In this document: in pieces, positions 971-53,812 of the stretch
Layout: every line of letters begins with the position of its first letter
Position numbering within the stretch: position 1 is the first letter of the stretch
Source: Oscillospiraceae bacterium
GTDB taxonomy: Bacteria; Bacillota; Clostridia; Oscillospirales; Ruminococcaceae
Length of the DNA stretch: 64,000 nt
Direction: 5' to 3'
Assembly: GCA_022508885.1 (NCBI GenBank)
Contig: JAFLUG010000002.1
Coordinates: 6,816 to 70,815, forward strand
Program-made: the position numbers and the translations under genes
The notes under the pieces: generated by a model
Told to the model about the DNA's origin: nothing
Database searches by the model: none
What the model saw: the letters and a program-made list of their open reading frames with translations, nothing else

Positions 971-972
971 AT

Positions 973-2025: not shown

Positions 2026-2054
2026 AATAATCCTCCACCGAAATATCTCATATT

Positions 2055-2083
2055 ATTATACAATACTATAATTGATTTGTCAA
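2055..2083 (-). promoter_or_regulatory. sigma-70-type promoter for aroB-aroA
   Basis: On the minus strand: TTGACA (2083-2078), 17-nt spacer, TATAAT (2060-2055), about 30 nt upstream of the aroB ATG. Confidence 0.6.
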
Positions 2084-2135
2084 GAGTTAAGACTGCACGG
2101 CGGACTTTTTACAAAATTTATTTATTCGTAAATTT

Positions 2136-2248
2136 ACCCCCGATAAGGCGAGCCGCCTTTGGCAATACGTTCCACATGTGAAACGCTGTCAAAGGCTGAT
2201 GCTCGAAGATGCGACACTTCTATATCGCACTTTCCTTAACTCGGGGGT
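2136..2248. other. ~113-nt highly structured intergenic element (multi-stem; unknown class)
   Basis: The closing helix ACCCCCGAtAAGG (2136-2148) pairs with CCTTAaCTCGGGGGT (2234-2248). Nested inside are helices CGAGC/GCTCG, GCCTTTG/CAAAGGC and a GTGCGA/TCGCA(T) hairpin. The element lies between the SCP2-gene stop and the aroB promoter. Confidence 0.4.
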
Positions 2249-2282
2249 AACAATTTTTTAAGAGATGATCAGTAAGAAAAAA

Positions 2283-2786
2283 TCAGAAAATTGAAGCGAT
2301 CATAACTGCAGCAGGGATATTTCCGTTTGCATTAAGAGCACCGGTAGAAACAGCATCCTTTAGCGTAAGTTTTCCATCAAGAAGTTTCATCATATTTTCA
2401 TAGTTGATATATGCCTCAAAGCTGCAGTTGTCATAACGATAGGGCTGGACATCAACTTTACCATTCTTGACCTCAACATAAAGGTGGCAACTTGTATCGT
2501 TTTCCAAGCCCCATACCTCGATATCGACCGCTGCATCCGATTTAACATTCTTAGCGTTTTTAATGAGCTTTCTGAGTTTAGCACACATTTCATCTGCTGT
2601 GGCAAACTTGGGCTTTCTAACTACTTTTTTCTTAGCAGCCACAGATTTAGCAGGCGTCTTTGCCGAAGTCTTAGCAGTTTTAGCAGGTGTCGTTTTCTTG
2701 GCCGATGTCGATTTTACCGCAGCTTTTGCTGTTGCAGTTTTGGTTGTCGCGGTTTTCTTTGCCGGTTTTTTCTCAGATTTGGTCAT
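2283..2786 (-). CDS. SCP2 (sterol-carrier-like) domain protein with a Lys/Ala/Thr-rich N-terminal tail
   Basis: The C-terminal ...LYVEVKNGKVDVQPY...KLLDGKLTLKDAVSTGALNANGNIPAAVMIASIF fits the SCP2 fold signature. The N-terminus is a KKPAKKTATTKTATAKAAVKSTSAKKTTPAKTAK repeat-like tail. I prefer the ATG at 2786 (RBS GAAAGGA upstream) over the ORF-track start at 2804. Confidence 0.65.
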   Translation of the reverse strand: MTKSEKKPAKKTATTKTATAKAAVKSTSAKKTTPAKTAKTSAKTPAKSVAAKKKVVRKPKFATADEMCAKLRKLIKNAKNVKSDAAVDIEVWGLENDTSCHLYVEVKNGKVDVQPYRYDNCSFEAYINYENMMKLLDGKLTLKDAVSTGALNANGNIPAAVMIASIF

Positions 2787-2923
2787 ATCAAAATATCCTT
2801 TCAACTATTCCGCTGGATACGGAAATTTTTACTACAATAATATAATAACATATTATTTCAAAAAATTCAACTGATTTTTTATATTGTATAAATATTTTTA
2901 CAAATTTTATTAACACTGATATA

Positions 2924-2952
2924 TTGACTTAACAGCATATGAATGATATAAT
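2924..2952 (+). promoter_or_regulatory. sigma-70-type promoter reading into the left prophage junction (putative original promoter of the recombinase gene)
   Basis: TTGACT (2924-2929), 17-nt spacer, TATAAT (2947-2952). It has the same layout as the promoter at 10996-11024 and is followed by the same CAGTAGGG leader. Confidence 0.55.
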
Positions 2953-2957
2953 AACCA

Positions 2958-3006
2958 CAGTAGGGAAAAATATTGCTTATTGCGTAAAATAGAAATGTTA
3001 TGGTAG
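2958..3006 (+). repeat. Left copy of the junction direct repeat (attL-like): intact left arm and centre of the recombinase core site, with a degenerate right arm
   Basis: 2958-2995 (cagtagggaaaaatattgcttATTGCGTAAAATAGAAA) matches 11030-11067 at 33 of 38 positions. The last 18 bp, ATTGCGTAAAATAGAAAT (2979-2996), are identical to 11051-11068. The right arm here is TGTTATGGTAG(CAAT) instead of TTTTACGCAAT. Confidence 0.75.
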
Positions 3007-3014
3007 CAATTTTA

Positions 3015-3046
3015 GTGCGGTTTTCACAAACCGCACTTCTTTTTTT
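3015..3046 (+). terminator. Rho-independent terminator just inside the left prophage end
   Basis: GTGCGGTTT (3015-3023), loop TCAC, AAACCGCAC (3028-3036), followed by TTCTTTTTTT. Confidence 0.75.
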
Positions 3047-3145
3047 GTGTCAACTTTCCGGCTCTGTTCGTCATGACTTTTTTCATCATTTTTGCGCGAC
3101 TCAGCTCGTCATAATTATATAAACGGTATTCGCGCCTTCGATAGC

Positions 3146-3395
3146 CCGCGCCCGCAGGCGCGGAACTCTCTTAGTGTTATCTTCTAAAAAACTCATGAGC
3201 CGAAATAAGTTTTTCCTCTATTTAGGACTTTTAACGCGCCCGCCTCGATAATAAATTGAACAAATCAAGGTTATATTTGCGGTATGACAACTTTCGGTTT
3301 CTTGAAAGAAGAACAGCGCAGCCTCGCGCGGGGTGGGCTTCAGCCCTCCGCGCGAGGCGTTCGGGGAAACCCCGTCTTGGTAATACGGGGTTTCC
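3146..3395. other. Cluster of GC-rich perfect hairpins (candidate phage intergenic region: ssDNA origin or packaging signal)
   Basis: Three hairpins: CCGCGCC-cgca-GGCGCGG (3146-3163); GCCTCGCGCGG...CCGCGCGAGGC (3321-3358, with inner GGGCT/AGCCC); GGAAACCCCGT-cttggtaat-ACGGGGTTTCC (3365-3395). The three overlapping ORF-track ORFs here lack RBSs and recognisable motifs. Confidence 0.5.
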
Positions 3396-3472
3396 ATTAC
3401 AAGCACCCCTGACCGGGGCGGAAATCTCGGTCTGGATGAAGAATAAAAAATCCAAAATTTACCATTTTCCCG

Positions 3473-3506
3473 CGGTGAAAAAATATCCCCCGACCGAGGT
3501 CGGGGG
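3473..3506 (-). terminator. Rho-independent terminator of the leftward lysogeny operon
   Basis: Plus-strand hairpin CCCCCGACC-ga-GGTCGGGGG (3487-3506). On the minus strand it is followed by ATATTTTTTT. It lies directly after the stop of the 50-aa gene. Confidence 0.7.
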
Positions 3507-3510
3507 GGGT

Positions 3511-3663
3511 TTATTCAGCTTTTTCAATGTATTTTTCTTTCATTTCATTTAAATCTGAATTTACTCTTTCAATAAAATCTTCTTTACTTTCTGCATTATC
3601 TGAATTAAAGTTTAACATTTCTATAATTTCTTCAAATATCTCTTCAATTATTTCTTTTTTCAT
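3511..3663 (-). CDS. Small acidic helical protein (50 aa), translationally coupled to the XRE repressor
   Basis: Own translation: MKKEIIEEIFEEIIEMLNFNSDNAESKEDFIERVNSDLNEMKEKYIEKAE. Its ATG (3663-3661) overlaps the repressor TGA (ATGA). Below the ORF-track size cutoff. Confidence 0.5.
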   Translation of the reverse strand: MKKEIIEEIFEEIIEMLNFNSDNAESKEDFIERVNSDLNEMKEKYIEKAE

Positions 3664-3890
3664 TTTCTCATCTCCTTTTTTTTATATGGTTTTTCTTCAT
3701 CTGTAATATTTGCTATATAATCTATCGAAACATTGTATATTTTTGCGAATTGTACTGCTACATCTAATGGTACTATTCTTTTCCCGTGTTCGTATCTTAT
3801 ATAACTATTCAATGATATAAAGGCTTTCTTTGCACATTCGTTTTGTGAATAGCCTTCTCTTTCTCTTAATTCGCTTAATCTTGTGTACAT
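3660..3890 (-). CDS. XRE-family helix-turn-helix repressor (cI-like), 76 aa
   Basis: LSELREREGYSQNECAKKAFISLNSYIRYEHGKR is a typical HTH_3 motif. The gene is divergent from the rightward phage operon, with three operators in between. Confidence 0.85.
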   Translation of the reverse strand: MYTRLSELREREGYSQNECAKKAFISLNSYIRYEHGKRIVPLDVAVQFAKIYNVSIDYIANITDEEKPYKKKEMRK

Positions 3891-3930
3891 TCATTATACC
3901 ACCTTTCTTTCTTTTATTATAAAAAAAAAT

Positions 3931-3991
3931 CTCCAAATGGAGTTGACAATTCACTCCAAATGGAGTATAATGATTATAACTCCAAATGGAG
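3931..3991 (+). promoter_or_regulatory. Rightward phage promoter interleaved with three identical operators
   Basis: CTCCAAATGGAG (arms CTCCA/TGGAG) occurs at 3931-3942, 3954-3965 and 3980-3991. TTGACA (3943-3948) directly follows O1. TATAAT (3966-3971) directly follows O2, with an exact 17-nt spacer. Confidence 0.75.
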
Positions 3992-4032
3992 TTAAATTTT
4001 ATTTCTCATTAAAAGAGAAGAAAGGTGTTTTT

Positions 4033-4392
4033 ATGAGTTTATTAGAAAGTATTTTTGAAGTCAAAAAAAGACAAGTTTTTTCAAGCGATCAAGCAAGATG
4101 TGAAGAATTCCTTCAATATTTTGATGATCCGGATAGGCTCATTGATTATTTTAAATGTAGCATTTTTTTCCAACCTGAGCTTGATTTTTATTATCAGTTA
4201 GCCTCATTTATTACTATGCTTGATTATGCCGAAGACCTTTTTTGTTATCTAATTTATTATGGATTTCCTTTTGAGATGGCAAAAAATATTCTTCTTCCTT
4301 TTTATTACAATGATGAGGCTTTAGTTAAATCGTGGTTTTATAATTGTATGTCTCGCGCTTCTGATGATATAAGAAAAAAACATGGTATTTAA
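4033..4392 (+). CDS. Hypothetical phage protein, 119 aa (first gene of the rightward operon)
   Basis: The ATG at 4033 is preceded by AGAAAGG. The ORF-track start at 3883 would overlap the repressor start and the operators. No motif recognised. Confidence 0.5.
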   Translation: MSLLESIFEVKKRQVFSSDQARCEEFLQYFDDPDRLIDYFKCSIFFQPELDFYYQLASFITMLDYAEDLFCYLIYYGFPFEMAKNILLPFYYNDEALVKSWFYNCMSRASDDIRKKHGI

Positions 4393-4430
4393 ATTTATCG
4401 CTCACCAAAAGAGCAGAAAGGTTTATAAAA

Positions 4431-4574
4431 ATGGAAAATCAAGAAACTAATGAAAAGTCCCTTGAACATTTAGAAATGGAAGCTTTTGAGGATTGGTTCT
4501 GGAAAACCTATGAATCTACAAAAAATCTTTCTTCTGAACAATTTCTTGATTATTATGATTATGAATTTCCTTAA
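4431..4574 (+). CDS. Hypothetical small acidic protein, 47 aa
   Basis: Own translation: MENQETNEKSLEHLEMEAFEDWFWKTYESTKNLSSEQFLDYYDYEFP. RBS-like AGAAAGG upstream. Confidence 0.4.
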   Translation: MENQETNEKSLEHLEMEAFEDWFWKTYESTKNLSSEQFLDYYDYEFP

Positions 4575-4577
4575 ATT

Positions 4578-4609
4578 CCGTTGGTCGTCCGGATCACGAC
4601 GACCACCAA
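4578..4609 (+). repeat. Conserved hairpin motif, copy 1
   Basis: CCGTT-GGTCGTC-cggatcac-GACGACC-ACCAA. See copy 2 at 5491-5520, which has a compensatory base-pair change. Confidence 0.6.
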
Positions 4610-4671
4610 GAGCAATAACGCTCTATAAATTTTATAGCTCTATAAAAGAGCGGAAAGAAGAGGTAAAAATT

Positions 4672-4932
4672 ATGTTGGTACAGTTGATTGGTGTTCAGGA
4701 TTTAAATTTTGACACGGACGACAACAAGCACATCGAGGGTCTTAAGCTGCACATCGCTTATGAGAATCCGCACGTTACCGGGCTGAAGGTCGACAGTAAG
4801 TTTATCAATGCAGACCTTTGCAAGAAGCTTAATCTGACGGCTTCAACCCTTGCCGGATATATCGACGCTGTTGTAGATATTGCAACGGATATCAACGGTA
4901 AGATCATCGGCGTTACACCTTGTAAGGAGTGA
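4672..4932 (+). CDS. Hypothetical 86-aa protein; position and size compatible with an ssDNA-binding (gene V-like) protein
   Basis: ATG at 4672 is preceded by AAGAGG. MLVQLIGVQDLNFDTDDNKHIEGLKLHIAYENPHVTGLKVDSKF... looks beta-rich and has no TM segment. The functional guess rests only on size and synteny. Confidence 0.45.
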   Translation: MLVQLIGVQDLNFDTDDNKHIEGLKLHIAYENPHVTGLKVDSKFINADLCKKLNLTASTLAGYIDAVVDIATDINGKIIGVTPCKE

Positions 4933-4938
4933 TTTTAC

Positions 4939-5034
4939 ATGCTCGAGTTTCTTCAGTGGGCTTGCCTCGGAAGCGGAATAATCTTTGCAGTTCTGCTTGT
5001 GATTTATTTCGTAACACGCAAGCGGGGGGATTAA
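4939..5034 (+). CDS. 31-aa single-TM protein with a basic C-terminus (coat or minor-coat candidate)
   Basis: Own translation: MLEFLQWACLGSGIIFAVLLVIYFVTRKRGD. RBS AAGGAG lies 8 nt upstream. Confidence 0.5.
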   Translation: MLEFLQWACLGSGIIFAVLLVIYFVTRKRGD

Positions 5035-5037
5035 TGT

Positions 5038-5283
5038 ATGTTGGAAATTCTTTTGAGTGAAGTTACAGAAACCTTGCCGGTACAGGCTATTGAGCTTGAA
5101 GAACAGATAAATCATTATTGGGCGCAGCTTGGCTCTTCTGTATTTCAGCCCGGTTTGATTATTGACCTTCTTTCGGATATGACAAAAAATCCTCTCTGTC
5201 TTTCTGTAACTGGCGCTTTGCTTGTAGTTTTTGGTTTTAAAATCTTCTCTCAAATGATATTCGCTCATCTTGAAAGGAGGTGA
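5038..5283 (+). CDS. Hypothetical 81-aa protein with a C-terminal TM segment
   Basis: ORF-track ORF. The hydrophobic LCLSVTGALLVVFGFKIF lies near the C-terminus. The gene is tightly packed between its neighbours. Confidence 0.5.
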   Translation: MLEILLSEVTETLPVQAIELEEQINHYWAQLGSSVFQPGLIIDLLSDMTKNPLCLSVTGALLVVFGFKIFSQMIFAHLERR

Positions 5284-5287
5284 TATT

Positions 5288-5479
5288 ATGGAAGGTTCAA
5301 GTACAACCGTTTTGCAGACCGTTGCAGGTAATTCAAAGGATTTTCTTGGCTTGGTAACAGATATCGGGAGTACATGTATGCAGAATGAGGTTTGCATGGC
5401 ATTTCTGACTGTTACTTTCCTTTCTTTGGCTGTACGTCTGTTTAAGAAGGTTGTCCGTGCTCTCGGTCGCGGAAGATAA
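5288..5479 (+). CDS. 63-aa major-coat-protein candidate (pVIII-like architecture)
   Basis: ATG at 5288 is preceded by AAAGGAGG. It has a polar N-terminal part, then the hydrophobic core MAFLTVTFLSLAV, then the basic tail RLFKKVVRALGRGR. Hairpins and a terminator follow, as after coat genes of known filamentous phages. Confidence 0.5.
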   Translation: MEGSSTTVLQTVAGNSKDFLGLVTDIGSTCMQNEVCMAFLTVTFLSLAVRLFKKVVRALGRGR

Positions 5480-5490
5480 CCTTCGTCAAC

Positions 5491-5520
5491 CCGTTGGTCG
5501 TTCGGGTCACAACGACCTCC
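5491..5520 (+). repeat. Conserved hairpin motif, copy 2
   Basis: CGTT-GGTCGTT-cgggtcac-AACGACC-TCCA. Relative to copy 1 the innermost stem pair changes from C:G to T:A (covariation). The flanks CCGTT...CCAA are conserved. Confidence 0.6.
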
Positions 5521-5560
5521 AAAAAAATCCGCCTTTCGGCGGGAATAGTTTATTTTTCAT
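5521..5560. terminator. Short bidirectional terminator between convergent phage genes
   Basis: An A-run, then CCGCC-tttc-GGCGG (5529-5542), then T-rich sequence. It sits between the coat-candidate stop and the stop of the minus-strand 47-aa gene. Confidence 0.45.
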
Positions 5561-5693
5561 TATCGTTTAATTTCTTAAGTATTTCGTCAAGCTTTTTTTC
5601 TATTGGTTTCATCAAAACGTGATACATTGTTATTATTATAATTACTAATCTTATGAAATCTAATGTTATTAATAGCCATATTTGATTTTCCAT
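5550..5693 (-). CDS. 47-aa single-TM protein encoded antisense to the structural operon
   Basis: Own codon-by-codon translation: MENQIWLLITLDFIRLVIIIITMYHVLMKPIEKKLDEILKKLNDNEK. RBS AAGGAG lies 8 nt upstream on the minus strand. Confidence 0.5.
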   Translation of the reverse strand: MENQIWLLITLDFIRLVIIIITMYHVLMKPIEKKLDEILKKLNDNEK

Positions 5694-5757
5694 TTTTAAC
5701 CACTCCTTTCAATTTGATTATATCAAATCGAGATTATTTTGTCAATGAGGTGATTTT

Positions 5758-7530
5758 GTGAAAAAGGTTTCTTCGGTTTTAATGGCTGTTGTAATATTTC
5801 TTGTTTGCGTTCTCTCTTGCTCGCTTACTGTCTTTGCCATTGGCGAGTTTTTGATTGATTATTCTGTATCTTATGTTTTAGATTACTTTTCGGATAATCT
5901 TTTAAATTCTCTTAATTCCGGTCAGGCAAAAATTGAAGCTGCTCGAAGCTATTATTTTTATAAGCTTGTAAATAACGAATATAACTATAATGGTTCTGTT
6001 TTTTCTTCCGATGGTACTCGTTTTACTGATGATTATTTAAATCATTGTTGGGACTATTATTTTGAAGTTGTTTCTGCAAATCGTAACGAATATGACAGTT
6101 CTGGAGATGTATTTTTGACAGCTGCAGGTTTTGACGGTTCTTCTTGGAAGTTGTCTATGATTGCTTTTGAAGATTTCGGTAATGAAAGCGGTAACACTAA
6201 TAATGAAAATACTTGGCGTTCTGACTATAAGAATTATTATCAAACCTATCTCGCCCGTTACATATTAGACCAAGGTGGCACAGCTTCCGACCCTAACCCC
6301 GGAAAAAGTGGTCTGGATATCGCTCCCGGATATGTAAGTTCCGACGATCTTAAGGAGCATATCAATAAGGAAAATACACTTTACAGTCCCAAAGGCAAAG
6401 ACCTTTTCTTAAATTCCTATCGTACCGATAAGAACTATCATAGAGAAAAAATTCCTTCCGGTTATACGGATAGCCTTTACTATGTCACATTGTTTCAAAA
6501 TCCTCAGACTATGGAGTGTTTGAGGGATTTGTATTGTCTGCCGTTCTATAAAGCTGAGGACGGCACAATGTACTATTGTGACTATATGTTCCATTATTAT
6601 TGGGTTGCTAATGATGATCCAAATTCAGATATTGCCTTTCGTGCTGACGTTTATCAGTTCAATCAGACTTTAGGCTATATTTATCATGACGAGTATTCCG
6701 GAATTATTTATGAGGGTTTAAGTTATTCTATGCCTTATCAGATAAGGACAGCCGCTTTTACTTATTCCGGCTCGGGTCATTATAATGATTCACCTTATTT
6801 TTCTTTCGTTTCAGATTTAACTGAATATGACGACTGTAAAGCTACTATATATCAAACTGTTCCATATCTTGCCTTGAAATTTTCGTATTTCTTGCCCGAC
6901 TATTCAGCTTCCTATCTTTTTTATAGATACAGTACTAATTCCTCGTATATTACAATTTACAAGAATTTTTTTAATTCAAGTCTTTCCGGTTATCCTTACA
7001 GCAAAAACCCTAACACTAACAATGATTATGGTTTCATCTGCTCCGAAAGCATGATTTCAACCGTTTACAATATAGACAGCTCTCGCATTCCTTCCGGTCA
7101 GATCATTCAGATCACCGGAGATAGTAACGTATATAACTATTATATGACTGATCCCGAAACAGGGCATAGCAGTACTGTAAACGAGTTTGTAGAAAACAAT
7201 TATACATATATCACCAATAACAACGGGGGAGAGGGAAGCGGATCCGGCGGAGCTGGCGGAGATATAAACGTCAGCGGTAAAGTTGATGTTGAAGGAGATA
7301 TCCACGTTGGTGTTGACGTTAATATAAATCAGGGCGGAACCGGAGTAAATCCCGATGATTTCATACAAGGCGATTTAGATCTTGGCGGTTATTATGACGA
7401 TGCTGTAGATATGGCTTCCGGCGTTAATAATTTTATGCAGCTTTTCTTCTCGTTTCTTCCTGCTGAAATTTTATCGCTTCTTGGTATTCTTATAGCTGTC
7501 GCAATAGTCTGTCGGCTTCTTGGGCGGTGA
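5758..7530 (+). CDS. pIII-like adsorption / minor coat protein, 590 aa
   Basis: GTG start after GAGGTG. Signal peptide MKKVSSVLMAVVIFLVCVLSCSLTVFA. Long Tyr/Asn/Ser-rich ectodomain. Gly-rich linker NNNGGEGSGSGGAGGD. C-terminal membrane anchor LSLLGILIAVAIVCRLLGR. Confidence 0.65.
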   Translation: MKKVSSVLMAVVIFLVCVLSCSLTVFAIGEFLIDYSVSYVLDYFSDNLLNSLNSGQAKIEAARSYYFYKLVNNEYNYNGSVFSSDGTRFTDDYLNHCWDYYFEVVSANRNEYDSSGDVFLTAAGFDGSSWKLSMIAFEDFGNESGNTNNENTWRSDYKNYYQTYLARYILDQGGTASDPNPGKSGLDIAPGYVSSDDLKEHINKENTLYSPKGKDLFLNSYRTDKNYHREKIPSGYTDSLYYVTLFQNPQTMECLRDLYCLPFYKAEDGTMYYCDYMFHYYWVANDDPNSDIAFRADVYQFNQTLGYIYHDEYSGIIYEGLSYSMPYQIRTAAFTYSGSGHYNDSPYFSFVSDLTEYDDCKATIYQTVPYLALKFSYFLPDYSASYLFYRYSTNSSYITIYKNFFNSSLSGYPYSKNPNTNNDYGFICSESMISTVYNIDSSRIPSGQIIQITGDSNVYNYYMTDPETGHSSTVNEFVENNYTYITNNNGGEGSGSGGAGGDINVSGKVDVEGDIHVGVDVNINQGGTGVNPDDFIQGDLDLGGYYDDAVDMASGVNNFMQLFFSFLPAEILSLLGILIAVAIVCRLLGR

Positions 7531-7534
7531 GTAT

Positions 7535-7714
7535 ATGACGTTTGATTTAAGCGGCTTCGTTGAGCTTGGCACATGGCTTTTTTCTATCGGAAAATCTATA
7601 TTTGAAAGCTTCGTTTTTGATTTCGGCGATTTCCAAATTAATGGCTTTGCTTTGATGATTGGAATAGCTGTATTTTGCATTATATGTTATCTTTTAGGGA
7701 GAATTACTGAATAA
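7535..7714 (+). CDS. 59-aa membrane protein (pVI-like position)
   Basis: The ATG at 7535 lies 4 nt after the pIII-like stop. Sequence MTFDLSGFVELGTWLFSIGKS...GFALMIGIAVFCIICYLLGRITE. Its stop overlaps the next ATG (TAATG). Confidence 0.55.
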   Translation: MTFDLSGFVELGTWLFSIGKSIFESFVFDFGDFQINGFALMIGIAVFCIICYLLGRITE

Positions 7715-8391
7715 TGGGAATAGCAGAAATAATTGAAATAATTGAAATTGTCAATTTTGCTTTGGAGCTTTCCGAAGCTATTGAAAACGGTGTAAATTAC
7801 ATAATTGAGAAGTTTGTAGATTCTTCCGGTAATGTATGTACACGGATTGTATATCGTTATGACAGTACGGGCGACGGTGTAGAGGACAGCGAGGAGATTA
7901 TTTATACTCTTCAGCAGACTATTCCTAAACTTTATGATGGTTATTGCCTTGTAAATAAAGGAAATGAAATTGGCTTGGGTCAGCCTTCTTTAAAGCTTGT
8001 AGACGCTTCCGAGCTTCTTCCTATACTCGGTGATACTTATTCCGTTATATCTGATGGAGAAGGTATTAAAATAGATTTTGATGATGACGGCTTCATTGAT
8101 GATATTTTTTTTCCTGCTCCATACGATTTTTCCGGTGACGGTATAAACGATTGGTATCAGATAGTCGATGATGACGATAACGGACTTCCGGATTGCGCTC
8201 CCGGTACTCCTTTTTATTCTGTCGGAAGTGACGAGTATAACTACATAATCGAAACGCAGTCAGATACCGAAGTTCCGGCTCTGGATAAGAGCTTTGCAAA
8301 CTATACCGTTACCGAGGCTCTTTTGTTCCTTATATTTGTAGCCGGAGCGATCGGCGTAGGTGCTAAATTTTTCAAGCGGAGGAATATTTAA
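7714..8391 (+). CDS. Acidic 225-aa protein with DxDG-type loops and a C-terminal TM anchor
   Basis: DDDGFIDD, SGDGINDW and DDDNGLPD resemble calcium-binding loops. The C-terminal ALLFLIFVAGAIGVGAKFFKRRNI is an anchor. Confidence 0.5.
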   Translation: MGIAEIIEIIEIVNFALELSEAIENGVNYIIEKFVDSSGNVCTRIVYRYDSTGDGVEDSEEIIYTLQQTIPKLYDGYCLVNKGNEIGLGQPSLKLVDASELLPILGDTYSVISDGEGIKIDFDDDGFIDDIFFPAPYDFSGDGINDWYQIVDDDDNGLPDCAPGTPFYSVGSDEYNYIIETQSDTEVPALDKSFANYTVTEALLFLIFVAGAIGVGAKFFKRRNI

Positions 8392-8392
8392 T

Positions 8393-8539
8393 ATGAGCTT
8401 AGATAATATCTGGTTTGGCAGTTTCGAGGACGTTGTTTCTTGGCTCTGTTCCGCTGTTCCTTACGCTTTCGTATCTGTCTTTGTTCTTTCATGCGTATTC
8501 TCTGTTTTTGAAACTGTTTCGAATTGGGGTAGAAAATGA
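8393..8539 (+). CDS. 48-aa single-TM protein
   Basis: Own translation: MSLDNIWFGSFEDVVSWLCSAVPYAFVSVFVLSCVFSVFETVSNWGRK. RBS GGAGG upstream. Confidence 0.45.
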   Translation: MSLDNIWFGSFEDVVSWLCSAVPYAFVSVFVLSCVFSVFETVSNWGRK

Positions 8540-8658
8540 TGTTTGAGCTTTCTAATCTTCGGGAATTTTTCTATTGGCTTACCGGCTTGGGTCCTGTTCT
8601 TTTCTTCTTTTTCATCGCTAAGAATTTCATTATTTTCTTCAGAAAGGACGGAAAGTAA
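8536..8658 (+). CDS. 40-aa single-TM protein
   Basis: Own translation: MMFELSNLREFFYWLTGLGPVLFFFFIAKNFIIFFRKDGK. ATGA overlap with the previous gene. Its stop abuts the next ATG (TAAATG). Confidence 0.45.
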   Translation: MMFELSNLREFFYWLTGLGPVLFFFFIAKNFIIFFRKDGK

Positions 8659-9462
8659 ATGTTTTCTGCTATAATCAGCGCTATAAAATGCGCTCCGAGG
8701 TTCTGGGCTTTTTTCTTCAAGGACTTTTATTATTACATAAAATACAAGAAGTGGAGCGATTTCAATTATTGGGGGCTTCATTTGTTCCTCGGTAAGTTTG
8801 GTTCCGGTAAGACTATTTCGGCTGTCCGGTACGCATATAACATCTGTAAGAACCATAAGGGCGTTACCGTTCTTACTAACCTTACGCTTACCAATTTTCC
8901 TAAGGATACCACTATTATTAAGTTGGTTAATTCCAATCAGATTAAGGAACTGCCTAATAATTCTATTGTTCTTATTGATGAAATAGGTACCATTTTCAAT
9001 TCTCGCGACTTTGCCTCTTCAAAAAAGTCCGTTCCGAAGCCTGTTTATCAGATAATTTTACAGTGCCGTCACAGGCGTATTATCATGATCGGCACTGTCC
9101 AGCGCTGGAATCTGTTGGATAAGCAGCTTAGAGATATCGCCGACACCGTCACTGAGTGCCGTAGTTTTTTCGGCGATCCTTTTTCCCGGTATACTACTTG
9201 TGCCAATTATGACGCTTACGAGTATGATAAGTGGTTCAATAATCCTCTTATTCCTCGCACTCTTCGTCGTTATTACGGATATATTCAGACCGACAAGCTG
9301 CGCAGTAAGTATGATACTATTGAAATGGTCGAGGGTATGCTCGATGCTGAATATATCCCCGATGAGCAGATCATACAGAACAGGGAAGGAACTTCCTTTT
9401 CTCCTGCTGAGTTTGAGAGCAAGTCCGCAAAAAAATCTATAAGAAAGGCGCTTAAGAGATGA
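8659..9462 (+). CDS. Zot/pI-like P-loop NTPase (filamentous-phage morphogenesis ATPase)
   Basis: Walker A GKFGSGKT and Walker B IVLIDEIG, with a hydrophobic N-terminal segment. It lies in the canonical position after the structural genes. Confidence 0.6.
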   Translation: MFSAIISAIKCAPRFWAFFFKDFYYYIKYKKWSDFNYWGLHLFLGKFGSGKTISAVRYAYNICKNHKGVTVLTNLTLTNFPKDTTIIKLVNSNQIKELPNNSIVLIDEIGTIFNSRDFASSKKSVPKPVYQIILQCRHRRIIMIGTVQRWNLLDKQLRDIADTVTECRSFFGDPFSRYTTCANYDAYEYDKWFNNPLIPRTLRRYYGYIQTDKLRSKYDTIEMVEGMLDAEYIPDEQIIQNREGTSFSPAEFESKSAKKSIRKALKR

Positions 9463-10715
9463 TTACCTGTAAGCCCAGCGATTATTTGACTATATCCCTT
9501 ATTCCGGATAAGGATAATAATATAGATTTGGCAGATTTTATTACTCTTTTGCTCGATACTATGCATCTTTCTGATATGCTCCCTCTCATGCGCTTTATGT
9601 GCTCAACCTCTAAATATGAGCAGATTTTGCGGTATGAGGATATCCAGATAAAAATTCCTTATGCCGAAAACTATAAGAAGCAGGGTATTTGCCTTGAATT
9701 TTCGGGAAATGGTGTAAATTATTATATCGAGTGGCTTAAAAGTAAATATAATACGAGCTTGCGCTCTGCGTGCAGACGTTTTTACGCGCTTGTGACAAAA
9801 GGCTTCAAGCCTAATTGTTCCCGCTTTGACGTGGCTTTTGATGAAAAAATACTTAATTCCGGAGAAGAGAAGTATCTCGATCTCGATGTTATAGAAAGTA
9901 CGCTTCGCTCTCGCTGTTTTGTTTCTTGTTTTCGGAAGGGCGATCCTGATCATAGCTCCGGAGAATTTTCTTCCGTGCTTATTGATTTATCCAAAGCTGA
10001 TGAAAAGCTCCATTGTGATTTCATCAGCTCCATGAACCTTTCAAACGGTGTTGTCGGTAAAACAATTCAGCTCGGCAAGCGTAATAGTTCTTCAGTTGTA
10101 CGCTTTTACGATAAAAGAGCTGAGCAAGAGGTAAAAGGGGTAGAGCTGCCTAATAATCTTTCTTCTTGGGTTCGTTGTGAGTGCGAGTTTAAGAAACTTA
10201 ACGCTAATTCTGTTATGATGAAATTTGTTGAACTTTCGGAAAAGGATTTTGTTACATACTGCTCCGGTGTGCTTCTTAACCTTATTCGTTTCATCAATCT
10301 TGACCGCTCACGCCGCTCAAATTGTACTGTCTGCGATTGGTGGCTTGGTTTCCTCAAACACGCTAAGCGCGCGAAATTGGTGCATTTCAAGCCTCAGCGT
10401 AATAAATATATCCGTGCTGTAGCTTACCAAAAGAAAAGCGTTTCAGCTTGTCTTACCGCAATTTCTATGTGTGATCCTCGCGAAATACGCAGTATTTACG
10501 AATCCGGTCTTGATATGGTTGCCGACAGTAAATCCGCTCAGGCTATAATCGCGGACTATAACGCTTTGAAGAATTTAAGCCCTTACGAGTTTGATAAAGA
10601 ATGTCACCGTTCATTGGATCCGTTGACCGGGGTTCAGTTTTTGCGCCTGTTTACGGCTAAATCTGATGACGAGTTCAATCAATTCCTTTCCGAGCTTAAA
10701 AAGGAGATAGCTTGA
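9459..10715 (+). CDS. Rolling-circle replication initiator (Rep_trans / replication initiation factor family)
   Basis: RFDVAFDE, VRFYDKRAEQE and WVRCECEFK match my recollection of the Rep_trans (pT181 RepC / phage RCR initiator) conserved blocks. ATGA overlap with the ATPase gene. Confidence 0.7.
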   Translation: MITCKPSDYLTISLIPDKDNNIDLADFITLLLDTMHLSDMLPLMRFMCSTSKYEQILRYEDIQIKIPYAENYKKQGICLEFSGNGVNYYIEWLKSKYNTSLRSACRRFYALVTKGFKPNCSRFDVAFDEKILNSGEEKYLDLDVIESTLRSRCFVSCFRKGDPDHSSGEFSSVLIDLSKADEKLHCDFISSMNLSNGVVGKTIQLGKRNSSSVVRFYDKRAEQEVKGVELPNNLSSWVRCECEFKKLNANSVMMKFVELSEKDFVTYCSGVLLNLIRFINLDRSRRSNCTVCDWWLGFLKHAKRAKLVHFKPQRNKYIRAVAYQKKSVSACLTAISMCDPREIRSIYESGLDMVADSKSAQAIIADYNALKNLSPYEFDKECHRSLDPLTGVQFLRLFTAKSDDEFNQFLSELKKEIA

Positions 10716-10987
10716 TAGTGTGTGATTGGTGGAGCTGCGCACATTTTGAGGACTGTAAAGCTCGTTGCATTTTCTCCGGTTCTAAATATCCGGCTTGCTA
10801 TATGTGCGTACATTTTGATATGTGTGATGTTTGCACTGAGTATGTCAATTGTGCCGATCTGGTTACTCGTTATCTTCCGAATATGTTCCGTAGACTTGTA
10901 AGAGATATCCGGCTTGGGGAAGATACCGAACGGACAAATCAGTTTATACGCCGTAATACTCTCGGCGGTCAGAAGCGTGATGTCTGA
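10712..10987 (+). CDS. Cys-rich 91-aa protein (11 Cys in the first 47 residues)
   Basis: MIVCDWWSCAHFEDCKARCIFSGSKYPACYMCVHFDMCDVCTEYVNC... TTG start 5 nt after AAGGAG, overlapping the Rep stop. Confidence 0.45.
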   Translation: MIVCDWWSCAHFEDCKARCIFSGSKYPACYMCVHFDMCDVCTEYVNCADLVTRYLPNMFRRLVRDIRLGEDTERTNQFIRRNTLGGQKRDV

Positions 10988-10995
10988 CCGCTTAC

Positions 10996-11024
10996 TTGAC
11001 ATATTCTGGTCATAATGGTATAAT
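10996..11024 (+). promoter_or_regulatory. Consensus sigma-70 promoter (phage side of the right junction) now driving the recombinase gene
   Basis: TTGACA (10996-11001), 17-nt spacer, TATAAT (11019-11024). Confidence 0.6.
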
Positions 11025-11029
11025 GTCCT

Positions 11030-11078
11030 CAGTAGGGCAAAATATGAGCTATTGCGTAAAATAGAAATTTTACGCAAT
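11030..11078 (+). repeat. Right copy of the junction repeat, containing a perfect 28-bp palindromic tyrosine-recombinase core site
   Basis: ATTGCGTAAAA-TAGAAA-TTTTACGCAAT (11051-11078) reads as 11-6-11, or equally as 12-bp perfect arms around AGAA. It lies between the -10 box and the RBS (AGGGGGA) of the recombinase gene. Confidence 0.75.
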
Positions 11079-11091
11079 ATAGGGGGATAGT

Positions 11092-12138
11092 ATGACAGAA
11101 AATAAAAATTACAATAACGCGCCTCAGTCTATCAGGGATTTTATTTATTACGAGCAAATTGTAAAGGGTCGTTCAGAGCTTACTGTAAAAAACTATTTTA
11201 ACGATTTAAAAAGTTTTTTCAGATTTTATAAAATCAAAAACGGTCTTGCGAACGAAAAGGATTTCTCAACAATTGATATTTCGGATATTTCTGATGATGA
11301 TATTAAATCCGTTGATTTACAGTATGCTCAGGAATTTCTGATATTTATGCAAACTAAAATGGCTAATCAGCAAAAAGCCCGCTATCGTAAGGCTGTGACA
11401 CTTCGTCAGTTTTACAAATTTCTTACTAACAACAAAAACATGTTCGAAGTCAGTCCTATGGCAAATTTGGAGCTTCCAAGCCCAAAACCGGCACTTCCGA
11501 AATATCTTACACTTGAGCAGTCTCTTGAATTGCTGGTTAATGTAGATACTCCTGATACAAAGCGCGATTATTGTATAATCGTATTCTTTCTCAACTGCGG
11601 AATGCGTTTATCGGAGCTTGTGGGAATAAATATGAGCGATATACGGAAAACACGCGATAAGGACGGAAACGAAATTTACTCGATGAAAGTCCTCGGAAAA
11701 GGCAGTAAAGAGCGAATTATTTATCTCAACGACGCTTGTGTTAATGCTTACTATGATTATATCTCGCCTGAGATAACCGATCCCGATATTCGAAATGAAA
11801 AAGGTCTGCGCGATATGTCCGCACAGACAGACGCTTTGTTTTTGAGCCGCAGACGTACAAGAATATCAAACCGCCGTGTTCAGCAAATCGTTGAGGATTG
11901 TCTGAAGAAAAGCGGGCTTGACAATATGGGGCTTTCGGTACATAAGCTGCGTCATACAGCGGCTACGCTGATGTATCAGAACGGCGTTGACGTTCGTGTG
12001 CTTAAAGATGTTCTCGGACACGAAAATCTCAATACAACACAAATCTACACCCATGTTTCAAATGCTCAGATGGAAAACGCTATGAAGAAAAATCCGCTTG
12101 CGTCGGTAAATAATAAATCAAAAAATGATAAAGGGTGA
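11092..12138 (+). CDS. Xer/phage-integrase-family tyrosine recombinase, 348 aa
   Basis: N-terminal SAM-like core-binding domain (TVKNYFNDLKSFFRFY). Catalytic signature GMRLSEL ... KGSKER ... HKLRHTAAT ... LGHENLNTTQIYTHV (R-K-HxxR-H-Y). Confidence 0.88.
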   Translation: MTENKNYNNAPQSIRDFIYYEQIVKGRSELTVKNYFNDLKSFFRFYKIKNGLANEKDFSTIDISDISDDDIKSVDLQYAQEFLIFMQTKMANQQKARYRKAVTLRQFYKFLTNNKNMFEVSPMANLELPSPKPALPKYLTLEQSLELLVNVDTPDTKRDYCIIVFFLNCGMRLSELVGINMSDIRKTRDKDGNEIYSMKVLGKGSKERIIYLNDACVNAYYDYISPEITDPDIRNEKGLRDMSAQTDALFLSRRRTRISNRRVQQIVEDCLKKSGLDNMGLSVHKLRHTAATLMYQNGVDVRVLKDVLGHENLNTTQIYTHVSNAQMENAMKKNPLASVNNKSKNDKG

Positions 12139-12143
12139 CATGA

Positions 12144-12914
12144 TTAGTCTCCTGTATTAAGCTTTTTCTTGAATATTAAAATTGTTAAAATGAGTATGCA
12201 TCCTATTAAAACAACATTATATTTTACAGGCGCTATAAAACAAATGTTAAAAATCATATGTGATAAAGAAACTATTAATATACTTTTATATCTATAAAAA
12301 AGTATTCCTAAAATAAATGAAATTAAAATTGTCCATACAAAATATATAAGTATCTCCCTAAATCCTAAGGAATTTCTTATTGCCCACATAGGAATATGCC
12401 AAATTGGCCAAACAATTCCAACATATACCAAAGAAGTTTTATTCCCTTTTTCATTTGCTATTTTATTCAGCAAAAAACCTCTCCATGCGATTTCCTCAAC
12501 CAATGCTGTCACAAATAAATAGATACAGTTGATTAAGACTGCTAAAACATTTGGATAAGTGTTTGTGAATAAATCTTTATCGTCTGTAATCAAGCAATAT
12601 ATAATTGAAAAAGATAATCCAACACTTCCCAAGATTACACAATAAAATATTGCTTGACATTTTACTTTTTCTGCAAATAAACCAAAAAACCATTTTTTAA
12701 AGATTCTATCTTTTAAGGAAAATAATATGGATACCACAAGTGGTATGGTAACAAATAAGTATTTAGCATTAAGTATCACTTGGGAGATATGAATATCGTT
12801 TTTTTCCAAAAACATAGGGAGATAGCATAAATAAGAAAGTATTAGAACCAAAGATGTCCACAACAATACTTTCATATCCGGTTTTTTCGTACTCATTTCA
12901 TTTTCCTCGTTCAT
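12144..12914 (-). CDS. CPBP (CAAX/Abi) family intramembrane metalloprotease
   Basis: Multi-TM protein with the EEIAWRGFL motif and a distal SHMIFN motif. It starts 8 nt downstream of the znuB stop, so it is the last gene of that operon. Start codon uncertain. Confidence 0.75.
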   Translation of the reverse strand: MNEENEMSTKKPDMKVLLWTSLVLILSYLCYLPMFLEKNDIHISQVILNAKYLFVTIPLVVSILFSLKDRIFKKWFFGLFAEKVKCQAIFYCVILGSVGLSFSIIYCLITDDKDLFTNTYPNVLAVLINCIYLFVTALVEEIAWRGFLLNKIANEKGNKTSLVYVGIVWPIWHIPMWAIRNSLGFREILIYFVWTILISFILGILFYRYKSILIVSLSHMIFNICFIAPVKYNVVLIGCILILTILIFKKKLNTGD

Positions 12915-12922
12915 AGTATCAG

Positions 12923-13741
12923 CTATTTATTCAAAATCTTCCCTACAGCAAAAAATCCCGCAAATGCCGCAATATTTACGCACACGATGCTTGCTCCGCA
13001 CGGAGTATCAAAAGCATAGGAAATTATCATGCCAATTATGAATGTTACCACGGAAACTACCGCAGAGCTTACAGTTACGGAAAGAAAACTTTTGAAAACA
13101 CGCATGGAACAAAGCGCCGGAAAAATTATGAGGCTTGAAATAAGCATACTGCCCATAAGCCGCATTCCTATAACGATCGTTATTGCCGTAAGCAGAGCGA
13201 TTAGCATATTATAGACGTTTACCGCGCCGCCTGTGGCTTTCGCAAAGCTTTCGTCGAATGTGATAGCAAAAATTTTCGTGTATAGAAATATAAACATAAA
13301 CAGCACGATAGAAGCTAAAATCACGCTGATTATAACATCGCTCCGGCTTACGGAAATAATACTTCCGAAAAGATAGCTGTTTATATCAACATTCGACCCG
13401 CTTGAGAGCGAAACGGCCATAACGCCTATCCCAAGCGCGCCTGTTGATATAAGCGCAATAGCCGCGTCGCCCTTGATCTTGCCGTTTGAGGACAACCTCA
13501 ACAGCAGAAACGCCGCGACGATTACAACGGGGATCGCAACTGCCATTGGCGCCAGATTCAACACCGTTGCAACCGCAAGAGCGCCGAATCCAACGTGTGA
13601 GAGCCCGTCTCCGATCATTGAAAAGCGCTTTAAAACCAGACTTACTCCGAGAAGCGCCGCGCAAAGCGATACTAAGATGCCCACAATAAGCGCTCTTACA
13701 AGCACGGGAGTACCGAGAATATCGGTTATTATTTCAGTCAA
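12923..13741 (-). CDS. znuB: Metal (zinc-type) ABC transporter permease, ABC-3 family
   Basis: 272-aa polytopic membrane protein with ABC-3-like sequence (GDGLSHVGFGALA). Part of an operon with the ATPase, the binding protein and Zur. Confidence 0.8.
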   Translation of the reverse strand: MTEIITDILGTPVLVRALIVGILVSLCAALLGVSLVLKRFSMIGDGLSHVGFGALAVATVLNLAPMAVAIPVVIVAAFLLLRLSSNGKIKGDAAIALISTGALGIGVMAVSLSSGSNVDINSYLFGSIISVSRSDVIISVILASIVLFMFIFLYTKIFAITFDESFAKATGGAVNVYNMLIALLTAITIVIGMRLMGSMLISSLIIFPALCSMRVFKSFLSVTVSSAVVSVVTFIIGMIISYAFDTPCGASIVCVNIAAFAGFFAVGKILNK

Positions 13742-14471
13742 GGCTCACACCGCCTTTCACGATGTCCGCAAAATCACTGTTTTTAAATTCCTCAAGACTG
13801 CCGAAAAAGAAGCTGTCCTCGCGCATACAAAGCACGCGGTTGGCGTATTTAAGCGCGGCGGATATATCGTGAGTGACCATTATTACGGTAATTCCCTCTT
13901 TGTTTATCCGGGAGATCAGCTCGTAAAATTCCGCTGTTATTATCGGGTCGAGTCCCGTTACGGGCTCGTCAAGAAGCAGCAGTTTTTTTGTCGCGCAAAG
14001 CGCTCTCGCCAACAATACGCGCTGCTGCTGTCCGCCCGACAATTCGCGGTAGCTTCTATTTTTTAGCTCGGTTATGCCGAGCTTTTCGATGTTTTCAGCA
14101 GCGGTCTTGCGCTCCTTTGAAGAATAAAACGGACGCATTCCGCGGGAGTTAAGACAGCCCGAGATAACGACCTCAGACACACTCGCGGGAAAGCTTTTCT
14201 GCGCGCTTGTCTGCTGAGGAAGATAACCTATCTCGTTCTTTTGCAGTCCCTCGCCGAATTCTATCGTTCCGTTTTCGGGCTTTTTAAGCGACAGCAGAGC
14301 CTTTACAAGCGTGCTTTTTCCCGAGCCGTTTTCTCCGACAATGCACAGATAATCGCCGCTGCTTATCTCAAAGCTTAGATTTTCAATTACTGTCATATTC
14401 TCATACGACAGGCAAAGATTCTCTGTTTTAATTAAAGCCATTTTTTCCTCTGTTTCAATATAATCAACCAT
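13734..14471 (-). CDS. znuC: Metal ABC transporter ATP-binding protein
   Basis: Walker A GENGSGKST, signature LSGGQQQR, Walker B LLLLDEP. An alternative start at 14441 (after GAGGA) is equally plausible. Confidence 0.85.
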   Translation of the reverse strand: MVDYIETEEKMALIKTENLCLSYENMTVIENLSFEISSGDYLCIVGENGSGKSTLVKALLSLKKPENGTIEFGEGLQKNEIGYLPQQTSAQKSFPASVSEVVISGCLNSRGMRPFYSSKERKTAAENIEKLGITELKNRSYRELSGGQQQRVLLARALCATKKLLLLDEPVTGLDPIITAEFYELISRINKEGITVIMVTHDISAALKYANRVLCMREDSFFFGSLEEFKNSDFADIVKGGVSLD

Positions 14472-30816: not shown

Positions 30817-30833
30817 TTACATTTAATTCAAAC

Positions 30834-30868
30834 CGCAAAGCGTGCAGATCCACGCTTTGCGCATTTTC
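30834..30868 (+). terminator. Intergenic hairpin/terminator between argG and argH
   Basis: CGCAAAGCGTG-cagatc-CACGCTTTGCG followed by CATTTTC (a short T-run, so possibly only an attenuating or stabilising hairpin). Confidence 0.5.
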
Positions 30869-30887
30869 AAACGGGAGATAATACATT

Positions 30888-33204: not shown

Positions 33205-33215
33205 TAGGTGATTTT

Positions 33216-34870: not shown

Positions 34871-34914
34871 TTTCACTAAAACCATTGTATATTGTTAAAT
34901 TAAGAGGTTTAAAA

Positions 34915-35769: not shown

Positions 35770-35776
35770 GGTAAAA

Positions 35777-36940: not shown

Positions 36941-36953
36941 GAAGGGAGCGAAG

Positions 36954-37358: not shown

Positions 37359-37379
37359 AACTTGAAAGGAATTGATCTA

Positions 37380-38291: not shown

Positions 38292-38305
38292 TTATTGGCA
38301 TAATA

Positions 38306-38527: not shown

Positions 38528-38609
38528 ACGGTCAACCCCCTTTAGAGTAATATTATGACGGCGTACTTGTACAAGATTACGCGTAATTCAACTAAAAGGG
38601 AGCGTTTGC

Positions 38610-53733: not shown

Positions 53734-53812
53734 AAAATCACCTCATATTCAAGCGTAAATTCAATTTAATTGCGTAAAAGTTTTCTTTTGCGCAGTATAT
53801 CCCCGTCTTGCC

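Follow-up and report, generated by a model that had tools for sequence, protein, structure and literature searches.

A palindromic dif-like site in the leader of a Xer-family recombinase gene near a Clostridia replication terminus and its likely exploitation by an inovirus-like prophage

The Xer/dif system is the near-universal solution to the problem of chromosome dimers, and the two arms of the classical dif differ in sequence. A 2017 review of single-recombinase Xer systems names only XerS and XerH in bacteria, in addition to archaeal XerA (PMC5357621). In streptococci and lactococci, the single recombinase XerS acts at difSL, which is located at the terminus and directly 5′ of the gene of its own recombinase. 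For this arrangement, Le Bourgeois et al. (2007; PMC1914069) suggested autoregulation and also protection: a dif placed between promoter and open reading frame (ORF) may block insertions, which would cut xerS from its promoter. Here we describe a related arrangement in a stretch of 64,000 nt (the window; positions 6,816–70,815 of contig JAFLUG010000002.1, assembly GCA_022508885.1) from an Oscillospiraceae bacterium. A perfect palindrome of dif geometry lies in the 5′ untranslated region (UTR) of a Xer-family tyrosine recombinase gene (xer) and forms the right border of an inovirus-like prophage. We regard this locus as likely to be a Xer/dif module that is linked to its gene, probably works with a single recombinase and is located some 5 kb from the terminus of this Oscillospiraceae genome, and that is exploited by an inovirus acting as an integrative mobile element exploiting Xer (IMEX). 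In the literature searched, with incomplete coverage (among it Kono 2011, Castillo 2017, Smyshlyaev 2021, Roux 2019, Le Bourgeois 2007 and a Sulfurimonas phage paper), we found neither such a module nor a Clostridia inovirus IMEX. A preliminary description of this DNA had likewise named no known Gram-positive inovirus that uses a single Xer-like recombinase of its host and the gene-adjacent site.

The palindrome consists of the arm ATTGCGTAAAA (11051–11061), the spacer TAGAAA (11062–11067) and the arm TTTTACGCAAT (11068–11078), which together form a perfect 11-6-11 site of 28 bp. T11050 and A11079 pair as well, so that the symmetry extends to 12-6-12. The 3′ end of the palindrome is 13 nt 5′ of the xer ATG. 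Motif scans were performed on a composite of 82 kb, for which the same contig was fetched leftward (L047, L206). It contains six perfect 11-6-11 palindromes as compared with none in mononucleotide shuffles. Perfect symmetry alone is thus unremarkable here, as the other five, all G+C-rich and terminator-like, also have it; what matters is the context. The xer palindrome is set apart by being AT-rich and free of a 3′ T-tract, by its position within a 5′ UTR, by being kept across species and by coinciding with the prophage junction. A pattern search of the window revealed one further near-match (53769–53796) with two mismatches, 0.01 such matches being expected by chance.

The unoccupied counterpart of the locus was found in another sample (L202) by exact look-up of a 99%-identical recombinase (P0002). 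In L202, the SCP2 gene is followed by a gap of 233 nt, which consists of the host promoter and the intact palindrome, and then by xer. It is 98.6% identical to positions 1–3000 of the window and 97.4% identical to positions 11014–14463, and the two stretches of the window to which BLAST aligns it share exactly 59 nt of L202, so that there is a single copy of the 59-nt repeat which brackets the prophage. L202 is an empty bacterial attachment site (attB), and the insert comprises 8,072 bp. At the left junction (attL), the arm adjoining the phage, TGTTATGGTAG, matches TTTTACGCAAT in only 6 of 11 positions. attL pairs with the full site 8,072 nt downstream, which has the identical spacer, and the homology between attL and the right junction (attR) stops at the border of spacer and arm. 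The phage attachment site (attP) was deduced from attL and attR as positions 11030–11067 joined to 2996–3010. Dif-like sequences of the host Xer target at both junctions, a property expected of an IMEX, are present at attL (2979–3006) and attR (11051–11078).

The prophage has those inovirus features that can be read from the sequence, namely a pI/Zot-type ATPase, a rolling-circle Rep and a small genome (8,072 bp). Otherwise, it consists of a plus-strand gene block with several small ORFs lacking matches. In its large ORFs, no integrase, resolvase, recombinase or transposase domain was detected with Pfam and PHROGs; for unfamiliar enzyme types this test is incomplete, as the ORFs below about 90 aa have no matches. 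Relatives of the prophage are present among IMG/VR viral contigs (Zot 42–71% identical in an alignment-based search), whereas a first Zot search and an exact search for the attP/attL pattern in IMG/VR gave no matches.

These data bear out most of what the preliminary description had proposed: a perfect 28-bp site between a consensus promoter and the ribosome-binding site (RBS) of the recombinase gene, its role as the right junction of a prophage devoid of an integrase in the ORFs that could be assessed, and a recombinase gene outside the repeat-bounded element. The suggested hijacking of a host recombinase is supported by the empty site, the host-borne gene, the integrase-less prophage and the hybrid attL. 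The 59-nt repeat includes arm and spacer, but it is more than an attachment core, as it also contains a phage-borne copy of the -10 box and leader of xer.

In the 5–6 nt preceding the left arm, L202 (8780–8800) reads ACGAGCT and attL (2970–2978) ATTGCTT, despite the 98.6% identity of the flanks; the phage-side copy (11042–11050), ATGAGCT, is closer to that of the empty site. As the phage-side copy resembles the empty site while attL differs, a past exchange between the repeat copies is suggested.

Table 1. Features of the xer locus and the adjoining prophage; positions refer to the window.
Feature	Position	Strand	Basis
Native xer promoter TTGACT-17-TATAAT with TG extension, now parted from xer by the prophage	2924..2952	+	Promoter scan 11/12; directly 5′ of palindrome and xer in L202
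Left copy of 59-nt direct repeat, with -10 box and leader followed by left arm and spacer	2942..3000	+	Repeat search; 83% identical to right copy
attL hybrid ATTGCGTAAAA-TAGAAA-TGTTATGGTAG	2979..3006	+	Read from sequence; perfect host arm, attR-identical spacer, degenerate phage arm
Inovirus-like prophage, 8,072 bp, no integrase; boundaries slide within shared arm and spacer	2996..11067	+	Absent from L202; domain searches
Intrinsic-terminator-like hairpin (3014-3037) and T-run, just inside left prophage end	3014..3047	+	Terminator scan; 10-pair stem, then TCTTTTTTTG
HTH (helix-turn-helix) repressor-like gene	3660-3890	minus	Leftward
Zot/pI-type assembly ATPase	8659-9462	+	Zot E = 3e-8
Rep_trans rolling-circle initiator	9459-10715	+	E = 7.5e-30
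Phage-borne outward promoter TTGACA-17-TATAAT with TG extension	10996..11024	+	Promoter scan 12/12; homologous to host leaders of phage-free loci
Right copy of 59-nt direct repeat	11014..11072	+	Repeat search
Dif-like core site (attR), perfect 12-6-12, asymmetric spacer TAGAAA	11050..11079	.	Read from sequence; conserved 5′ of xer orthologues; in 73 metagenome contigs
RBS of xer, AGGGGGA	11081..11087	+	Read from sequence; GGAGG-like element at equivalent place in orthologues
Host Xer-family tyrosine recombinase gene xer, 348 aa	11092..12138	+	Pfam, NCBIfam, structure alignments; present without phage in L202, L004, L010, L012, L015
Second dif-like sequence ATTGCGTAAAA-GTTTTC-TTTTGCGCAGT	53769..53796	.	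Non-coding hisH-hisA intergenic spacer; same position in L026 (4667-4694) and L028 (836-863)

The Xer protein has a Pfam Phage_integrase domain (E = 6e-36) and a SAM-like N-terminal domain. Its catalytic set is complete (R172, the hairpin lysine K203/K206, H284, R287, H310 and Y319), as revealed by alignment to the structures of XerD and XerA. It was placed among the Xer groups by hidden Markov model cut-offs instead of the phylogenetic tree proposed earlier. The NCBIfam scores are 191.5 bits for XerC (TIGR02224, equivalog cut-off 335.15), 185.8 for XerD (TIGR02225, 329.6), 176.9 for XerA (NF040815, 220) and 114 for XerS (NF003462, 267), so that the protein stays below all four cut-offs and is not assigned to any of these groups. 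Against solved structures, phmmer gave 91 bits for XerA, 89 for XerD and 51 for XerH of Helicobacter pylori (5jjv). By these scores the enzyme is a member of the Xer clade outside the named groups XerC, XerD, XerS and XerA. Public sources name the family merely ‘tyrosine-type recombinase/integrase’. Among 8,000 matches, the best 120 are 73–100% identical and come from Oscillospiraceae, Ruminococcus and Clostridia metagenome-assembled genomes. No second tyrosine recombinase was found in the 64-kb window.

The comparison with phage-free relatives, which had been called for, revealed an uninterrupted order of promoter, palindrome and recombinase gene not only in L202 but also in four other species (L004, L010, L012 and L015, recombinase 84–88% identical). 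In these four, the gene order is aroB–SCP2–(promoter–palindrome)–xer–ABC transporter, and phage genes are absent. As L202 and the phage-free orthologues keep gene and site without the phage, xer is assigned to the host. The counter-case considered in the preliminary description, a recombinase that always travels with the phage, is thereby excluded. Between loci, the percentage identity of the recombinase is correlated with the values for the adjacent aroB (r = 0.75) and ABC permease (r = 0.88), and the 44 related loci are on 44 separate contigs from 44 differently named genome records. The gene appears to be single-copy and, judged from these comparisons, is a vertically inherited host gene.

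GC skew was calculated on a phage-less composite of 74 kb. To the left of the site, there are 13 consecutive plus-strand genes spanning 15.6 kb with a GC skew of +0.10. Gene orientation switches and the cumulative GC skew has its maximum at about window coordinate -2300, some 5.3 kb from the site. For about 27 kb to the right of this switch, all host genes are on the minus strand except xer and one short PTAC-domain gene (PF06130), and the overall skew is -0.08. At the point of gene convergence, there is a perfect G+C-rich palindrome. The site is terminus-proximal in this genome. The earlier caveat that gene orientation does not switch at this locus is an artefact of the window starting only 3 kb left of the site: the switch is located just outside, and its proximity speaks for a genuine dif rather than just a landing pad. 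A dif of the B. subtilis, E. coli or difSL type was not found in the 82 kb (best matches with 8–11 mismatches, the best difSL match with 11). Twelve loci from other species were analysed together with 10 kb on either side; to the left of the site they are all G-rich, to the right the skew is lower or negative, and none has an origin-like pattern. These data are rated as compatible only, since stretches of 21 kb are short and a cumulative-skew maximum less than 6 kb from the centre is often to be expected by chance. Within the otherwise minus-strand, negative-skew right flank, a 12-kb block (approximately 30000–42000) has plus-strand genes and positive GC skew; it could be an inversion or an island.

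On balance, these data tip towards the module being the cell's dimer-resolution system. Alternatively, recombinase and site may derive from an integration module that was domesticated, or from an old element of which they are left over, and serve mobile elements for attachment only, while canonical XerC/XerD resolve dimers at a classical dif in another part of the genome. Integration modules indeed have the gene beside its site, a point made for XerS by Le Bourgeois et al. (PMC1914069), several different elements use the site, and the local gene order is rearranged between species. The recombinase also scores below every Xer equivalog cut-off, and the search for other Xer genes spans only the 64-kb window. 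Nevertheless, we consider this explanation unlikely in view of the clean terminus-type switch of orientation and skew 5.3 kb away, the lack of a classical dif within 82 kb of the switch, and a gene which appears single-copy and whose divergence tracks that of housekeeping neighbours. Furthermore, the best protein matches are Xer equivalogs, not phage integrases.

Conservation of the site was analysed at 30 orthologous loci with a recombinase identity of at least 70%. The site is within 100 nt of the start codon in 22 of these, and in 39 of the 73 metagenome contigs. Both arms are identical to those of the window and less than 100 nt from the start codon at 16 of the 30 loci, five have one or two arm mismatches, and one (L019) carries a double change that preserves the symmetry (ATTTCGTAAAA/TTTTACGAAAT); in two others, the xer-proximal arm alone is kept. 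The spacer is 6 nt long in every full site found, which has to be read in the light of searches that presupposed this length, apart from one test in the distant group which allowed 6–8 nt. Several spacer sequences occur (TAGAAA, TAAAAA, TATAAA, TAAAGA, TGGAAA, TCCTTA, CTTTTA, TTTCTC). The flanking UTR is poorly conserved while the arms are near-invariant (alignment A2). Among recombinases with 40–49% identity, two further arm types occur, ATTTCGCTAAA-N6-TTTAGCGAAAT (L042, L043, L044, L046) and ATTATACAAAA-N6-TTTTGTATAAT (L036, L045, L051). Arms that change symmetrically on both sides fit a single protein binding both halves, as far as can be judged from sequence. A second family of tyrosine recombinases, about 30% identical to the window protein, adjoins an extended palindrome, GATATC-ATTGCGTAAAA-N6-TTTTACGCAAT-GATATC (L133, L134, L136, L181, L130, L149, L199; 351–400 aa in the two members scanned). 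At loci with 46–49% identity (L033–L035, L037–L041, L045; Fimenecus-type), GTGAAAC-N-GTTTCAC is found directly before the RBS instead of a site with dif geometry.

An RNA hairpin would co-vary in the same way as a protein-binding site, and the palindrome could mainly serve the leader of xer as such a hairpin or as the operator of a repressor, with the phage entering by homologous recombination between the 59-nt copies. A hairpin is predicted in the transcript (-13.7 kcal/mol, z = -4), the palindrome lies 2–12 nt 5′ of the RBS, and four of the seven one-sided arm changes would retain a G-U pair; the copies are 83% identical, and the nucleotides just 5′ of the arm look swapped between them. Even so, this explanation is very improbable. 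It is the arm sequence itself that is near-invariant, not merely its pairing, while the remainder of the UTR drifts, and the 6-nt spacer of the full sites is the core geometry of tyrosine recombinases. The site is also present outside 5′ UTRs, and phage orientation tracks spacer polarity (see below). Homologous entry is contradicted by the end of the attL–attR homology at the spacer/arm border and by five independent elements with the order arm, spacer, degenerate arm. No Rfam family matches the palindrome region, and neither a known RNA family nor a tRNA target was found at either junction. Sequence invariance, fixed 6-nt spacing and the junction data thus favour a DNA site over a hairpin, although a regulatory role could coexist with recombination. 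The palindrome is, as judged from all sequence comparisons, very probably a recombination site used with this recombinase.

The site is used recurrently. Pairs of a hybrid and a downstream full site were found in the window and at four other loci, enclosing elements of 8,072, 1,904, 1,886, 3,132 and 5,455 nt. The right end of related inoviruses (Zot 45–71% identical) adjoins the site at the genome loci L006 and L014, on the IMG/VR contigs L049, L050, L061 and L208 and on at least 19 metagenome contigs. L051, whose recombinase is 49% identical, has an inovirus close to its site of the ATTATACAAAA type. If the spacer is read in the direction from the phage to the site, its polarity is the same in 32 of 33 cases (GAGAAA, TGGAAA, TAAAAG, TAGAAA and similar), many of which resample the same phage–host pair, whereas phage-free sites read towards xer show both polarities. 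The clearest comparison is that of an empty locus (L175) with a lysogen (L163), which agree in the host flank on the NifS side and in the site, with TTTCCA as spacer. Next to the site, L175 has xer, whereas L163 has the right end of a phage in inverted orientation, in agreement with spacer polarity.

Several observations accompany these data. In some hosts the spacer is inverted relative to xer (L175/L179/L171 versus L163/L157/L135; L013, L028, L154, L180), with the sequences TTTCCA, TTTCTC, CTTTTA and TTTTCA; the phage is there oppositely oriented and the perfect site is on the side away from xer. L025, which has a hybrid site beside xer and an HTH gene facing xer, was considered as a reversed lysogen, but was dropped because its spacer polarity does not fit. 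Two different inoviruses meet at one perfect site, both arms of which are phage-supplied, in L143 (4816) and L165 (2426). Mini-elements of 1.9 kb (L021, 8050–9981; L142, 2–1915) are bordered by a hybrid and a perfect site and have the phage right end in common; they may represent satellites, or phages shortened by deletion. In many assemblies, the contig starts less than 40 nt from the palindrome (L002, L008, L027, L192, L159, L183, L018), which fits population-level presence and absence of inserts but could also be due to an assembler artefact at the palindrome.

That the recombinase is instead a phage integrase beside its own attP, with the true right end of the prophage beyond 12138, can be dismissed: the gene adjoins the phage genes and is co-oriented with them, four of the IMG/VR viral contigs mentioned above (L049, L050, L061, L208) contain it and Roux et al. 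(2019), who do not discuss Xer or dif, as well as similar pipelines take an attachment site beside an integrase as canonical, but the empty site already refutes this explanation, four more species with conserved synteny likewise lack the phage, the repeat boundaries leave the gene outside and its divergence tracks that of host neighbours.

As the site is located between promoter and RBS, any insertion at it orphans xer. In the window, the native promoter is now followed by the terminator-like hairpin at the left prophage end, which, we infer, would halt transcripts from the orphaned promoter. The leader at the right end of the phage aligns with the host promoter-leaders of phage-free loci in the -35 box, TGnTATAAT and AGTAGGGG..AAATAT (alignment A2). 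The motif AGTAGGGG(A)AAATAT is found between -10 box and left arm in both the host-borne and the phage-borne copy (2960–2975, 11032–11047). All phage right ends abutting xer have a promoter scoring 9–12/12 (11–12/12 except for the L021 mini-element), the -10 box of which ends 26–38 nt from the arm or, in L021, 59 nt from it; these ends represent three sequence types, one of them that of the window. In contrast, five phage right ends abutting a non-xer flank, of two types, are without a promoter (best score 7/12). By its position, the phage promoter could drive xer. Whether it is a counter-adaptation which keeps the hijacked recombinase expressed appears evenly balanced to us, the sequences representing few independent lineages.

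The following mechanism would account for these observations. Two monomers of one recombinase would bind each site via the identical arms of 11–12 nt, two sites would synapse and strands would be exchanged at the spacer borders, so that a chromosome dimer could be converted to monomers by recombination at the site. As the site is within the 5′ UTR of xer, its occupancy by the recombinase may damp xer expression. The phage attP would have one perfect arm, a spacer matching that of the host and a degenerate second arm. Its recombination with dif by the host Xer would insert the phage, rebuild a perfect dif beside xer (attR) and leave the one-armed hybrid attL, with the asymmetric spacer setting the orientation of insertion. 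Insertion would sever xer from its native promoter, and the promoter at the phage right end with its host-like leader would keep xer expressed. From the sequence, we infer catalysis, a role in dimer resolution, the sufficiency of a single recombinase, promoter function and autoregulation. We put forward a wider interpretation tentatively, its chances as a whole being slightly below even: a large group of gut Oscillospirales may resolve dimers with an undescribed single Xer at a palindromic dif in the 5′ UTR of its own gene, and a Gram-positive-type inovirus clade may be its IMEXs, using a one-armed attP and a portable xer promoter which would defeat the protection by linkage that was proposed for XerS systems. 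The asymmetric spacer alone would then set the direction of integration, and its polarity would flip between hosts and carry the phage orientation along.

A number of results weigh against the proposed module and its exploitation. Linkage of gene and site is not universal: 3 of the 30 close orthologues have a perfect site 0.35–0.95 kb upstream, three others are without a site (two of these with less than 200 nt of upstream sequence) and 8 of 14 distant orthologues have a different short palindrome. Near the site, about 20 of the 73 metagenome contigs show no recombinase gene and no phage genes; because of these contigs and the 30%-identical family at the extended palindrome, the arm sequence is to be regarded as used beyond this one gene family. 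The predicted stability of the RNA hairpin also has to be counted here. In 4 of the 12 loci from other species, the cumulative-skew maximum is at the edge of the DNA, and canonical XerC/XerD and a classical dif may be present in parts of the genome outside the stretch examined. The metagenome counts overstate the number of independent events, as many cases resample one phage–host pair. A circular or attP form of the phage was not found, exact-protein look-ups (p91, Zot) yielding lysogen contigs only; L205, a phage contig from Logan, has attR instead of attP at its end. L060 was at first read as a clean attP. It shares the phage right end with L061, where this leads to the perfect site and xer, while in L060 it leads to ATTGCGTAAAA-GAGAAA-ATTGATAACCC. 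Past this hybrid site, the DNA matches the element of 1.9 kb in L142, but only over a short stretch at the left end of that element. The first reading was therefore dropped, since the structure fits an attP or the junction of a tandem array.

Directly after its hybrid site, L060 (3364–3885) encodes a RelB-like antitoxin and a YoeB-like toxin, as recognized by eye from the ORF translations. Inside the prophage of the window, a perfect inverted repeat of 17 nt (4426–4442/5682–5698) is a common RBS with a MENQ start; it serves two otherwise unrelated ORFs of 47 aa on opposite strands, and the minus-strand ORF has its own 12/12 promoter (5745–5717). In the dif-like sequence between hisH and hisA, the hisA-side arm is perfect and the hisH-side arm is degenerate in its outer 3 nt; the polarity of its spacer is not constant between genomes.

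If the proposed module is real, it adds a single-recombinase lineage from abundant but poorly cultured gut Clostridia, with the simplest type of site, having identical arms. The protection hypothesis of Le Bourgeois et al. (2007) becomes testable, as phages appear to evade the protection with a replacement promoter, while sister phages land on the other side of the site without such a promoter. Xer-exploiting phages would reach the monoderm anaerobes, the examples in the review (PMC5357621) being all from Proteobacteria. Prophage pipelines that take an adjacent tyrosine recombinase for a phage integrase will misplace the borders of such elements.

By sequence, archaeal XerA/dif and bacterial XerC/XerD are closest, and the 11-6-11 geometry is shared with them, but the window protein scores below their cut-offs, and the classical xerC and xerD genes are far apart and far from dif (PMC1914069). 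XerS/difSL has in common with our locus the Xer-type recombinase, which probably acts singly in our locus as well, the site directly 5′ of its gene and the location at the terminus. However, the window enzyme is not an orthologue of XerS (114 bits as compared with a cut-off of 267), and difSL is an atypical site of 31 bp (PMC5357621), whereas the window site has 28 bp, a 6-bp spacer and perfectly identical arms. Moreover, phages equipped with a promoter of their own occupy the site described here. XerH of Helicobacter and Campylobacter is likewise a single recombinase at its own dif-type resolution site (PMC5357621; PMC5241119). It is from another phylum and its similarity to the window enzyme is weak (51 bits for 5jjv, as compared with 91 for XerA and 89 for XerD); an inovirus using difH is not reported in the literature searched.

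With respect to exploitation, the closest elements are the IMEXs TLC-phi and the gonococcal genetic island (GGI). They also lack an integrase, have an attP that matches dif in one arm and the central region while the other arm diverges, and are flanked after integration by one functional dif and one defective hybrid (PMC5357621). They differ in depending on the two recombinases XerC and XerD of Proteobacteria, and their hosts face no promoter problem, as dif is far from the xer genes; here, the host belongs to the monoderm Clostridia, the arms are palindromic and a replacement promoter for the recombinase gene comes with the phage. The Vibrio phages CTX-phi and VGJ-phi are filamentous and integrate at dif via the host Xer (PMC5357621), as is proposed for the window phage, with which they share a rolling-circle initiator and a Zot/pI-type ATPase. 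CTX-phi, however, integrates as folded single-stranded DNA from two attP halves, while in the window phage no inverted pair of attP halves was seen and the junctions fit a double-stranded, one-armed attP. Of the precedents named in the preliminary description, XerS/difSL and XerH/difH match the architecture of the locus and IMEXs its exploitation, the deduced attP resembling that of the TLC-phi and GGI type.

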